Origin: Mobula hypostoma
Taxonomy: Eukaryota
DNA length: 64,000 nt
Reading direction: 5' to 3'
Assembly: GCF_963921235.1 (NCBI RefSeq)
Contig: NC_086097.1
Coordinates: 36,520,001 to 36,584,000 of the forward strand
The notes beneath the pieces were generated by a model. That model was not told where the DNA came from. It worked only from the letters and a program-made list of their open reading frames with translations, and made no database searches. Shown here piece by piece: positions 4,228-54,999 of the stretch; the first letter of the stretch is position 1; each line of letters opens with the position of its first letter. The translations under genes and the position numbers were made by a program.

Positions 4228-32797
<28,570 letters not shown>

Positions 32798-37370: not shown

Positions 37371-39203
37371 AATCCTTAAAAAAAAAGGATCTTTTATCTT
37401 TAAAACCCTTATGAATAGATGCAGTATTCCTACTGACTCCTGGAATCACTGGACCACGACTCAAAGTGGGGGAGGAGCATTCATGGTGGAACTGAAAGCC
37501 ACAACGTCCAGCTGTTGGGAACATACAGGACACTGGTGTATGTACACACCTGCTGAGCCCATTCAATACCCCCTGTCCTATATGTGACCAGGCTTGCAGG
37601 GACTACATTTTCCTCAACAGACCCCACAAAAAGCTGATAGGAAGCATGTTACCCTCTGTCATGAGTGACTGCCCAAGAAGAATATGAAGATTTTAAGTGC
37701 TGATACCTTCAGAGAGTGCTAAGTAAGATTACTTTAGTCTTGTGCACACCAGTCTCCAAATAGGAGCATATCAAAGTGAAAATCTCAACAATCTTCCAAC
37801 AGTCTTTACGCAGGTAAAGGTCCCGCAGGTGAGATCTGTTTAGAATAGAATGTAATGTATTCTTGTTGGGGATCTGTGGCTATGGGAAAGGGCAGACGTA
37901 GGAGTAGTCACCCTATTTCACTATTTTTGGTCTGTTTGCACTGTGCTGCACTCCACTACACCCCCCAAGCATCACTCTGGATACTGCTGGGAGAGGAGGT
38001 CGGGGGACCTAGCAGAGGAGCTCTGCAGCACTTCTCTGGATACTGCTGGGAGAGGAGGTCGGGGGACCTAGCAGAGGAGCTCCATAGCACTTACGTTTTC
38101 GGTATTGAGTCTGGTTCTTTGGCACAGAAGGGAAAGGAGGAGAAGGGGCAGGCTGTAATGATAGGAGACTTATTGGTTAGGGGAACAGAAAGGAGGCTCA
38201 GTGAACGTGAGTGAGATTCCCAAATAGCATGTTGTCTCCAGGGTGCCAGGTTCGGGGAAATCTTGGGATTGAGTCCTCAACCTTCCTAAGTCGGAGGGTG
38301 AGCAGACAGATGTCGTGGTCGAATAACATGGGTAGGAGGGATGACGAGGTCCTGCAGAGTGAGCTCAGGTAGTTAGGTGCTAACTTAAAGGACAGGACCT
38401 GTGATCTCAGGAATGCTACCTGTGCCACGTGCTAGCGAAGCCAGAAATTGGAAGACCATACAGACCATACATGTGGCTAAGGAGATGGTGCAGGAAGGGG
38501 TGGGCGGCTTCAGATTTTTGGATCGTGGGCTCTCTTCCAGGGGACATAGGACCTGCACAGAAGGGACAGTTTGCACCTGAACTGGATGGGGAATAATACC
38601 TTGGTGGGTAGATTTGTTAGTGCTGCACAGGGGTGCGGGGAGGTGGGGAGGGGATTGAACTGGAGTTGCATGAGGATGGGAAGCAGAACGCCAGGACAGA
38701 CAGTGGAGTAGTTGTAGAGAAAGACGTTAAGCCTACATACAAGGTCAGGAATCAAAGGGTTTGAGCACGGTGGGACTAATGTCTGAGCTACGCATACTTC
38801 AATGCAAGGAGTATTGCAGGAAAGGTAGGTGAGCTCAGGGAATTATGACATGGTAGCCATTAATGAGACTTGATTTCAGGGGAGGCAGGAGAGGCAGCTC
38901 AGTGTTCCAGGATTCCATTGTTTTACATGTGATACAGCAGGAGAAATTATAGGGGGAGGGGTGGCATTACTAGTCAGGAAAAATGTCATGGCAATACTCA
39001 GTCAGAACAGTCTGAAGAACTCTTCTACTGAGGCTTTATAGGTGGAACTGAGAAATAAGAAAGGTAAGACCACGTTATCAGGGCTATATTACAGACTACC
39101 TAACAGTTCAGGAAATTTAGAGGAGCAAATTTGAAGAGAGATCGCAGACTGTTGCAAGAAATGTAAGGTTGTTATAGTAAGTGCTTTTAACTTCCCACAT
39201 GTT

Positions 39204-52400: not shown

Positions 52401-52732
52401 CTTTGATTGTCTTTGATATGTCAGAATAAAACAGCAGCTTATTATACAAAATTGGAATTGAACCAATAATCAGACAGGCCCTGACAAAGTTCAACCCAAA
52501 AGCCTCAAAGGAATATAATCTAATGTAGATTAGTATAATGTAGATTAATATAATTTAATATAGATGCAGCACAGAGCGTCATAGGAAGTCATTCCTGCCT
52601 GTGGCCATCAAACTTTACAACTCCTCCCTTGGAGGGTCAGATACCCTGAGCCAATAGGCTGGTCCTGGACTTATTTCATAATTTACTGGCATAATTTACA
52701 TATTACTATTTAACTATTTATTCCTATTTTCT

Positions 52733-52916
52733 GGCCGCTGTCACATGCAAACAGCTACGGGGAGCCACAGGTGAGAGCTGAGTGCCAGGTGGGGACCAAA
52801 GGTGGACTACCGCCTTGAAAAGTACGCGACATGTTACCCCACCAGAGGTGCTACCCCTCCCTGACACCCCATACACCCCAGGCAACGGCTTCGACAAGCC
52901 GGCTAAACCAGGTGAG
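52733..52916 (+). ncRNA. Putative HDV-like ribozyme of the element 5' end, split by the inversion in this copy
   Basis: After re-inversion: P1 GGGGTGT/ACACCCC, P2 CTCACCTG/CAGGTGAG, P3 GGC/GCC, L3 starting TCCCC, GG, P4 CGGCTT/AAGCCG, J4/2 GCTAA. Confidence 0.55.
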
Positions 52917-53299
52917 GGTAGCCGACGGGTCTCAATCCCTCGGTGAGATAGAGAGTTGTCTATCCCAGCATGTGAAGACAGACTCTGGCGGATTGAGCGG
53001 ACGAGACCAATGGAAGGTCCAACGGTCAAAAAGGCAGTCTCTGCAAGTGTCATGGAACGTGTAGAGCAGGACAAGACACAGAAGACGTCCTGGTCATCCA
53101 CTGTGCCTAGTCCCATCTCCAGCCGTCTCGACTCTGTCTTGCCACTGGATCCAGATGGGAATTGGGAAGAGAGAGTGAGGATGACGCTGCGCAACTCTCC
53201 CTCACTTAAATCCAAGTCACGCGCTAGTCTCAACACCATCAATAATGGTGTTGAGGTCTTCATCGACGTACGATGGACGAACAACAACAACAACAACAA
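52733..53299 (+). mobile_element. Non-autonomous RTE-related element with inverted 5' segment (52733-52870) and (CAA)n tail
   Basis: 9-bp TSD CTATTTTCT (52724-52732, 53300-53308). 52733-52870 is the reverse complement of the head at about 15970-16096, while 52873-53103 is colinear with 16097-16327. Confidence 0.85.
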
Positions 53300-54999
53300 C
53301 TATTTTCTATTACTATTTATTATTATTATTTCAATGACTATTACTATTTACTATTTACTAATAGTAATATTACTATTACTATTTATTATTTATGGTGCAA
53401 CTGTAACGAAAACCAATTTCCCCCGGGATCTATAATGTATGACTATGACTAATTCATGGCAGTATTAACTGAACTCCATTCTATATCTTAATTCACCTTC
53501 AAGAAACAGGAACAAAAACAGGATTGAACTTTCTTGATTTCTATGCATTCCTGGTATCAGACTGTGAGAATTAATAGCAATTCCTTAACACTCATTATCA
53601 AAGGGTAAAGAAAAAAGAAGACAAAGGGATGAGTTCATCATGGAGACTTAGGATGAAAATTGCAAATATGTGATTGAGGAGCGGAAGGACACTATTGCCA
53701 TTTTGTTTTTCAATAAAATGGTAGCTGATCTGACTCTAACCTCAGTTCACATTCCTGCCTGCTCTTTCTAGTTTTCCATATGCTTGCATATTAAGGTTCC
53801 ATCATCTTTGCCTTAAAATTGTTCAAATTTTCTGCTTCCATGAGCCTTTGAAGAAGAGAGTTCTAATAATGTATGATCCTGAGCAGAAAATAAAATCACC
53901 CAATCTTTGTCTTGAATGGGTGATACTATGAATAGTAACTCCCCCCGCATCCCCCACCACCACACACAGACTCTTCTGCAAGAAAAAAAGCATGTTTTCT
54001 ATACACAGCCTGTGGGGATTTCTCTGGATACACAGATAGATGCAGGCAAGGGTCAAAGATTTCCACTGTGCATCAGGAATTGATTATTTCCTACTAACCT
54101 ACCCCTCCAACTTTCTTCACAGTCAACACAACATCCATTCATTTAAATGGACTGGAAAATCAGAGGCCAGATGACCAATTCCAACATCAGCCCCAATGAA
54201 CTCGAGCACCAAACAGATGTCAAGGTGAGGCGGAGGGTTATAATGGAAAACGCTGGCCTCTCAATTGAACAGGAAGAGTGAAGAAACTTGCAAAATAGTT
54301 CACAGAGATGTTTAAACAATAGTTTGAAAAACTTGCTCTTGTCATGATAAAGAAGTCTTGTATGAGAATGACCAAAGGTAAAACGAGAAAAGTGCCATCC
54401 ATTCCGTGACAAAATAAAGCACTTACATCCTGAGGAATTCTTTCTCCATAGTAACCTTGTGCATCAAACAGTGAACCTGGTTTGTGCATAGCCCATGGCT
54501 AGCATATTTAAAATCAGTAGTAATGGAAAGTAACAGCATTAATTTATAATTGTCGTACACTGAAGAGCTGCTACTTAACAACACTCATTTGAGCATTCAA
54601 TATCATGACTAGTCAGATTTATCACCAGCAAGTGAATAATCTAAATATAACCCTAGTGAGTAAATGTGCAAGGCATTTGACAAGAGACAGGGAAAACTGC
54701 TGGTAAGGTCACAGAGGAGTCATGTTCTCAATGAATGGTGGAATAGTTTTGATTGTCAATTAGCTTACTCCTGTTCTTAAGACACAGATTAAAACCAACC
54801 ATCTAAAGAAGCCATGGATAAGTGAGCTGTTTCAAATTGGAATGCTCTCTCCAACAATGTTCATCATCGTTTGAAAAAGAGGCCACATGAGCAGGCAAGC
54901 AAGACTAACTGGTAATTCTTTCAAACAGATGGTACAGTCTCGTTTTGCTGTGTAATGCATGACCGTATGGTGTGGTACTTTGTCATACAGATTCGACAG

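Follow-up and report, generated by a model that had tools for sequence, protein, structure and literature searches.

The window, by which we mean the whole 64,000-nucleotide stretch of DNA analysed here, carries on its minus strand a protein-kinase exon (24019-24381; Pfam Pkinase, E 4.8e-12) and a likely kinase C-terminal exon that gave no Pfam match (6185-6628), and a protein kinase C-like gene probably contains the element described below or lies close to it. The window also holds a near-perfect inverted repeat (31509-31660 and 31729-31880; 152 bp, 96%) and a 118-bp palindrome (37975-38092; 95%). The element, at 52724 to 53308, sits inside another repeat and has one recognisable relative in the window:

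52562..53451, plus strand: host repeat, the 3' end of a high-copy LINE (high depth in both flanks; family joints from 52721 to 53373; contigs with loose ends at 52562 and at 53451)
52724..52732, plus strand: left target-site duplication, 9 bp (sequence repeat, contig joints, simulation)
52733..52879, minus strand: flipped head, positions 147 back to 1 of an inferred 574-nt colinear RNA (BLAST, re-inversion, contigs, simulation)
52873..53229, plus strand: body in colinear orientation, with homology to the 5' leader of L004, an autonomous APE-type LINE (L004 alignment)
53228..53299, plus strand: 3' end with two hairpins and (CAA)n, putatively a LINE 3' end (sequence, folding)
53300..53308, plus strand: right target-site duplication (sequence repeat)
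15968..16490, plus strand: colinear, 5'-truncated relative with the same head and another tail, bounded by a 7-bp duplication (ACTAGAG) and serving as orientation reference (BLAST)

The duplication CTATTTTCT is found at 52724-52732 and 53300-53308 and has no third occurrence on either strand of the 64-kb window. As a control for chance, a repeat of at least 9 was obtained for 41 of 5508 position pairs in the AT-rich flanks (0.7%), and one of at least 8 for 71 of them. Within the duplication, ACACCCC occurs twice (52864-52870 and 52873-52879), separated by AT; CAGGTGAG is present as direct copies at 52768-52775 and 52909-52916; and (CAA)n spans 53280-53299. An earlier note on this DNA had read the copy as a duplication, a flipped head, AT, a colinear body, (CAA)n and the duplication again, and every coordinate of that layout holds. 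The inversion in copy 52724..53308 is real in the sequence, and one target-site duplication encloses both the inverted 5' segment and the colinear 3' segment. Because the left breakpoint directly adjoins the duplication, the flip dates to the insertion itself, as had been proposed; the last T of the left duplication may double as the first flipped base, a microhomology of 1 nt.

We infer the empty site of this insertion. The host repeat, which we take to be Rex1/Babar-like, shows joints from 52721 to 53373, so that 53309-53372 and most of 52722-52732 are absent from the common host form. The former segment is an AT-rich stretch of ~64 nt to the right of the duplication with direct and inverted ATTACT-type repeats, and a 26-nt palindrome lies at 53356-53381; these repeats resemble the outcome of repeated re-priming during repair.

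The orientation of the family was established in two ways. BLAST against the window found one relative, in which 16080-15972 aligns with the head over 109 nt at 78%, on the opposite strand, and 16097-16326 with the body over 232 nt at 75%, on the same strand. When 52733-52870 was re-inverted in silico, the alignment ran over the breakpoint without a gap and its score was 346, versus 227 unmodified. We also compared 52401-53600, apart from the (CAA)n tail, with contigs from four public runs (three organisms), three of DNA type and one, X13, presumed to be RNA, at 82% likeness; individual records are considered for the 32 listed pieces out of 74,307 and for the 15 listed joints out of 233. Copy number is high, with 13,677-29,342 contigs per DNA-type run, the host repeat counted in. 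In the three DNA-type runs, 237, 213 and 217 contigs have loose ends before 52732, and the consensus of these ends is the reverse complement of the sister body. Joints to the opposite strand connect 52732 with 52874 (3, 4, 8 and 0 contigs across the four runs) and 52733 with 52873 (6, 4, 5 and 1), each with 1 letter in common. Since the loose ends read into the sister body and these joints link 52732/3 to 52873/4, the colinear arrangement is the family form. It is therefore the copy at 52733 and not the one at 15973 that is rearranged, as the earlier note had held, sister copies in three organisms being colinear; the converse situation it had allowed for, most copies having the 52733 orientation, was looked for in the contigs and the colinear form was found instead. 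Organisms A and B both contain flanking sequence.

The relative at 15968-16490 shares head and body with the element up to the motif CATCCACTG and then continues into a different tail. A further insert of 242 bp (122-363) lies in a LINE fragment between copies of a 12-bp duplication with one mismatch (110-121 and 364-375). Its head looks tRNA-like by eye and its positions 240-361 resemble the tail of the 15973 copy (79%), so that the two have the same tail and different heads.

The re-inverted element matches L004 with 77% identity over 435 nt, including part of the head. The homology stops at window position 53229, and L004 goes on into a frame for an AP-endonuclease (Pfam Exo_endo_phos at 25.8 bits, against a cut-off of 24.5). 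The 5' part is thus homologous to the leader of an autonomous LINE, as in a bipartite element. The last 70 nt form two hairpins followed by (CAA)n, and there is no long open reading frame, the sole stop-to-stop frames being two that overlap on opposite strands, 162 and 191 aa long. Together with the fold described below, the L004 homology bears out the earlier view that the element is non-coding, derives from the leader of an APE-type LINE and has a predicted HDV-like core. We presume that it belongs to the RTE group on the basis of motifs, the (CAA)n tail and a 9-bp duplication near the RTE peak. Passages of PMC4245944 place that peak at 10-12 bp, and PMC6007223 also treats RTE duplication patterns in part of its text.

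A pattern scan of viral_contigs and metagenome_contigs gave no match to the head motif and 6 and 23 matches to the body motif, of which one in 29, L004, is a true relative. L005 was rejected as unrelated coding sequence, and three matches in prokaryote genomes were taken as chance. In L004 (1-130 and 189-1427), an autonomous LINE leader with the same ribozyme core is found downstream of a reverse-transcriptase-like fragment. As no GGGGTGT strand can be seen upstream, L004 may be truncated. An in-frame stop lies in its endonuclease frame ~28 codons ahead of the conserved start, with no ATG between. At 52804, 265, 214 and 19 contigs from three runs depart from the head into one common sequence that differs from it; they represent a large sister family that has the same ribozyme core but another J1/2.

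The strands of the predicted ribozyme are divided between the flipped head and the body:

52733..52766, minus strand: P3 (GGC/GCC) and L3, which starts UCC and holds an extra hairpin (52755-52737) (folding; HDV layout)
52768..52775, minus strand: P2 5' strand (folding, relatives)
52780..52789, minus strand: 3' side of the J1/2 helix (folding; the J1/2 domain has z = -2.9 versus 200 dinucleotide shuffles)
52860..52870, minus strand: GGGGTGTC, the inner strand, taken as P1 in the earlier note; 52869-52860 is the 5' side of the J1/2 helix (pairing 0.95-1.0 with 52789-52780)
52871..52872, minus strand: AT between the two GGGGTGT strands, probably templated (four of five listed head pieces pass it unclipped)
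52873..52879: 7-nt seam common to head and body, the P1 3' strand on the plus strand and the outer P1 5' strand on the minus strand (folding; contig record 17 ends at 52879)
52886..52901, plus strand: P4 hairpin (folding)
52902..52916, plus strand: J4/2 with the candidate catalytic C at 52903, then the P2 3' strand, 52909-52916 (folding, relatives)

In the re-inverted copy, P1, P1.1, P2, P3 and P4, assigned by eye, follow one another in nested double-pseudoknot order, an arrangement that we compared with that of HDV. The strands are largely kept in two relatives, P1.1 having a mismatch or bulge here. The P4 stem is kept in the sister form represented by the loose ends, with changes on both sides as judged by eye. 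The candidate catalytic C lies in GCTAA; J4/2 is identical in L004 and changed in the 15973 copy, which begins ~14 nt inside the inner strand. The +1 position is a G, and this G1 is paired with C, as in HDV-like ribozymes. The tolerances applied to the fold were taken from passages of PMC3774820. A search with the Rfam HDV-type models gave no match in the 15973 copy or L004 and, across the seam, a match of 14.3 bits that stays below the threshold of 44 (E 6.4). P1 did not form in unconstrained RNA folding (at most 0.04); the folding does not model pseudoknots, and constrained folds were therefore compared instead. Inversion has left this copy unable to form the ribozyme, making it a dead end, and a function is unlikely for a lone dead copy inside a repeat.

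The earlier note had placed G1 of P1 on the inner strand and concluded that the inverted cDNA ends within 2 nt of it, AT being an added linker. Constrained folding points elsewhere. With P1 forced on the outer strand the energy is -74.8 kcal/mol, compared with -63.7 (7 bp) or -64.6 (8 bp) on the inner strand, the pseudoknot strands being left open in each case. The outer GGGGTGT, 9 nt further out, is thus favoured by 10-11 kcal/mol in these folds, and the inner strand pairs inside J1/2 (at least 0.95). The contigs agree: among the five listed pieces that reach the end of the head, four pass 52870 and run to 52872, 52874, 52877 and 52879, and one (X13 record 12) stops at 52869. The listed pieces carry 11-20 other letters and so come from other loci. 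The first three of the longer pieces end with their records, and the one to 52879 is followed by 400 unlike letters; in other rows the comparison clips unlike ends down to 1 letter. The listing favours long pieces and gives no mismatch positions, so the 2- and 4-letter extensions weigh little; those of 7 and 9 letters would be hard to obtain by chance.

Since folding and contig extensions concur, AT is probably templated and the predicted G1 is probably the complement of 52879. The view of AT as a linker and the placing of the flip's end 2 nt from G1 thus both lack support as they stand: sister pieces run through AT and up to 9 nt beyond the inner strand. The earlier note had also named copies extending well upstream of GGGGTGT as evidence against its case. 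Copies do extend upstream, by 9 nt and into a second GGGGTGT, and this strengthens the underlying idea that the flip stops at the predicted cut site and that the seam arose through P1. The whole head was probably flipped up to G1 with no base lost, the seam being a 7-nt microhomology equal to P1; the insertion is 7 nt shorter than the 574-nt RNA because 52873-52879 serves both segments. A part of P1 complementarity in the junction had been suggested as well. On the note's own reading both copies of ACACCCC are kept and AT has no template, so that the seam could not be due to P1 pairing, since annealing leaves one copy; with the outer strand the suggestion is supported, and the objection that two kept copies of ACACCCC exclude P1 annealing was dropped given the outer strand seen in contigs and folding.

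We consider it highly probable that the whole head was flipped at insertion with its seam on P1, a core that two mechanisms share. The best explanation, slightly favoured at a probability of roughly 0.45, is a P1-guided snap-back of the full-length cDNA followed by cutting of the loop. A host transcript carrying the short non-autonomous RTE-type element would be cut at the outer G1 by the predicted HDV-like ribozyme and, judging from the fold and the sister copies, would then begin with the P1 5' strand. A LINE protein would prime at the (CAA)n end and copy the RNA to its first base, as the presence of the whole head suggests. The first strand would end in ACACCCC-3', the sole 7-nt complement of which lies 140 nt back; with the RNA gone, it would fold into a DNA mirror of P1 and prime the second strand of the body. 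The 140-nt loop would be cut at the stem base, the 5' end joined to the target top strand and the gap filled. The expected product is a duplication, a flipped head, a shared 7-nt seam, the body and a duplication with nothing lost, which is what the window contains. In a variant, a double-stranded cDNA end would be resected before folding back, giving identical letters.

Simulated snap-back reproduced 52724-53308 letter for letter at a loop-cut offset of 0 or -1, the latter corresponding to the shared T, and failed at five other offsets; the 574-nt RNA was built from the copy's own seam, and the simulation speaks to consistency rather than truth. The first strand is complementary at its 3' end to the start of the colinear segment, the other breakpoint coincides with the stem base at two of the 7 offsets (0 and -1), and the seam is the sole ACACCCC in the 574-nt RNA. 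Folding of the whole first strand with DNA parameters gave a terminal fold-back probability of 0.15-0.18 at 37 C and 0.61-0.65 at 20 C. Against snap-back, the inner ACACCCC pairs more often at 37 C (0.43) than the terminal one (0.18), there is one such copy, and twin priming yields the same letters in simulation. Furthermore, the R2 snap-backs published so far place extra antisense sequence ahead of the head, which makes the loop cut an added step.

Twin priming with a join annealed over P1 is somewhat less probable and still a serious contender. The target top strand would prime the RNA at 147/148, beside the P1 3' strand, and copy to G1; the first cDNA would have stopped after the P1 3' strand, and the ends ACACCCC and GGGGTGT would have annealed. 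This rebuilds the window exactly in simulation, and both the layout and the annealing of two cDNAs at a short complement belong to the standard model in passages of PMC2912911. A 7-nt seam, if the outer strand is real, fits twin priming and snap-back alike. However, of the 534 priming positions tried only 147 and 148 work, both corresponding to the single P1 complement. Nearby cDNA ends are expected under twin priming, and their coincidence with one P1 complement is not; the position would be accounted for if a polymerase had stalled at the ribozyme core and swapped primers. The target end does pair with the RNA, by 1 nt, which is at chance level (137 of 565 positions give at least 1 nt and 43 at least 2), whereas PMC2912911 reports in part of its text that ~70% of inverted L1 copies have 2-5 nt of primer pairing. 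The same text counts inverted copies as rare among short trans-mobilised elements (Alu 1/5554, SVA 4/477). According to passages of PMC4245944, most L1 inversions come with duplications of 10-20 bp, and it is argued that a short overhang is too weak; the duplication here is 9 bp. Outside L1, twin priming is recorded there once, for Nimb-2. The twin priming described in passages of PMC4476161 concerns snRNA with L1; for RTE they treat template switching and contain nothing on inversions. Layout and seam microhomology fit the earlier twin-priming reading, which the 1-nt primer pairing and the identical product of snap-back keep from being singled out. We infer the preferred snap-back mechanism, from cleavage and full-length copying to fold-back and loop cut, from letters that both routes share. 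Snap-back forces the coincidence of seam and P1, and by our rough estimate the likelihood ratio favours it by at least 10; the prior favours twin priming by a similar factor, as that process is established for L1.

Twin priming exactly as the earlier note had it, with the second cDNA stopping at the inner G (52870), AT untemplated and a blunt join, is improbable. It rebuilds the letters (the e=7 case, which gives the same string), AT could have been added, a contig in the list ends at 52869 and the inner strand is able to pair with the P1 3' strand over 8 bp; against this, the inner strand is held in J1/2, the inner P1 fold bears the energetic cost given above, and four of the five listed sister pieces run unclipped beyond it.

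That DNA between the two P1 arms was inverted, either in a source copy or at the site itself, and that the left arm was then lost is very improbable: simulation gives the right seam exactly and leaves 7 extra bases on the left (592 versus 585), just those which a second event must remove, and no inverted sub-family appears among the 15 of 233 joints listed. An assembly or library artefact is equally improbable, for although no contig bridges the inverted seam or the left joint among the 32 of 74,307 pieces listed, contigs break in high-copy repeats, the flip begins at the duplication boundary with nothing lost or duplicated, and fold-back read artefacts are expected to give palindromic duplications.

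Taken together, one inverted copy, with a 147-base head and its seam on the 7-base stem of a predicted self-cutting RNA, suggests that the P1 stem caused the newly made DNA to fold back upon itself in the course of insertion. In the literature searched, which extends to little of the subscription literature, no report ties a 5' inversion to a ribozyme helix or describes 5' inversions of RTE elements. Self-annealing with hairpin cleavage has been proposed before and R2 snap-back has been reported, and the present case is a testable mechanistic twist on a known event. It bears on 5'-end joining and second-strand priming of non-LTR inserts, and its seam marks the predicted first base of the ribozyme in DNA. 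If P1 drives the fold-back, inverted copies of this thousands-strong family would share one seam. The full-length cDNA of any retroelement freed by an HDV-like ribozyme would end in the perfect complement of an internal 7-mer, because P1 demands it. That the ribozyme thereby builds in a self-priming site, making snap-back a recurrent route of second-strand priming, is a speculation that we regard as unlikely; were it true, RTE elements and others headed by a ribozyme would be expected to carry exact, stereotyped head inversions, and some of the 5' inversions classed as twin priming would have arisen differently. In R2-based gene insertion, which employs 5' ribozyme modules, snap-back junctions have already been seen, so that an effect of P1 could be checked in existing data.

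Ruminski et al. reportedly compiled ribozyme lists in 2011 and are cited in connection with non-autonomous RTE elements that have 5' HDV-like ribozymes, and Ostertag and Kazazian reportedly described 5'-inverted, twin-primed L1 insertions in 2001. HDV-like ribozymes at RTE 5' ends are known from passages of PMC6765202, and the layout of the 52724..53308 element fits the bipartite non-autonomous RTE elements described in part of PMC5786205. Like those elements, as both texts present them in part, it combines a 5' leader with a putative LINE 3' end, lacks an open reading frame, and has a predicted 5' ribozyme and a microsatellite tail. It differs in the extra L3 hairpin, the long structured J1/2 and the doubled GGGGTGT, and in falling below the threshold of every Rfam HDV model. 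A doubled P1 strand has a precedent in R2 5' ends, where, according to passages of PMC3774820, cleavage shifted to the outer cut and the inner of two P1 5' strands was absorbed into J1/2; the duplicate strand there stems from the 28S target sequence.

As in twin-primed L1 (PMC2912911 and PMC4245944, in part), a duplication encloses an inverted 5' segment and a colinear 3' segment with a tail, and the seam has microhomology. Unlike twin-primed L1, the present copy is a short non-coding RTE-type element with a 9-bp duplication and 1 nt of primer pairing; it shows no loss or overlap at the breakpoint, its flip reaches the predicted first base and its seam is a predicted functional RNA helix. R2 cDNAs also snap back, for one protein especially after full-length synthesis (passages of PMC11371274), and junctions of this type were reported in PRINT (passages of PMC11371274 and PMC11204384). 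There, too, the cDNA 3' end primes on cDNA and the templates have a 5' ribozyme; in contrast, antisense sequence is joined to the target ahead of the insert with no flipped head, and the passages concerned tie snap-back to no ribozyme helix. A further parallel is with inversions at L1 breaks, for which self-annealing and hairpin cleavage have been proposed, with 14 bp at the seam and 0 bp at the other joint (10.1101/2024.12.14.628481, in part); an extended homology at the seam of the inversion, with the second joint lacking any, is given as the signature of that process. The present copy shares this signature, together with a large loop and a retained duplication. In the L1-break inversions, as that source describes them in part, it is mostly flanking genomic DNA that is flipped and the homology is accidental, whereas here the element's own head flips and the homology is built into every full-length copy.
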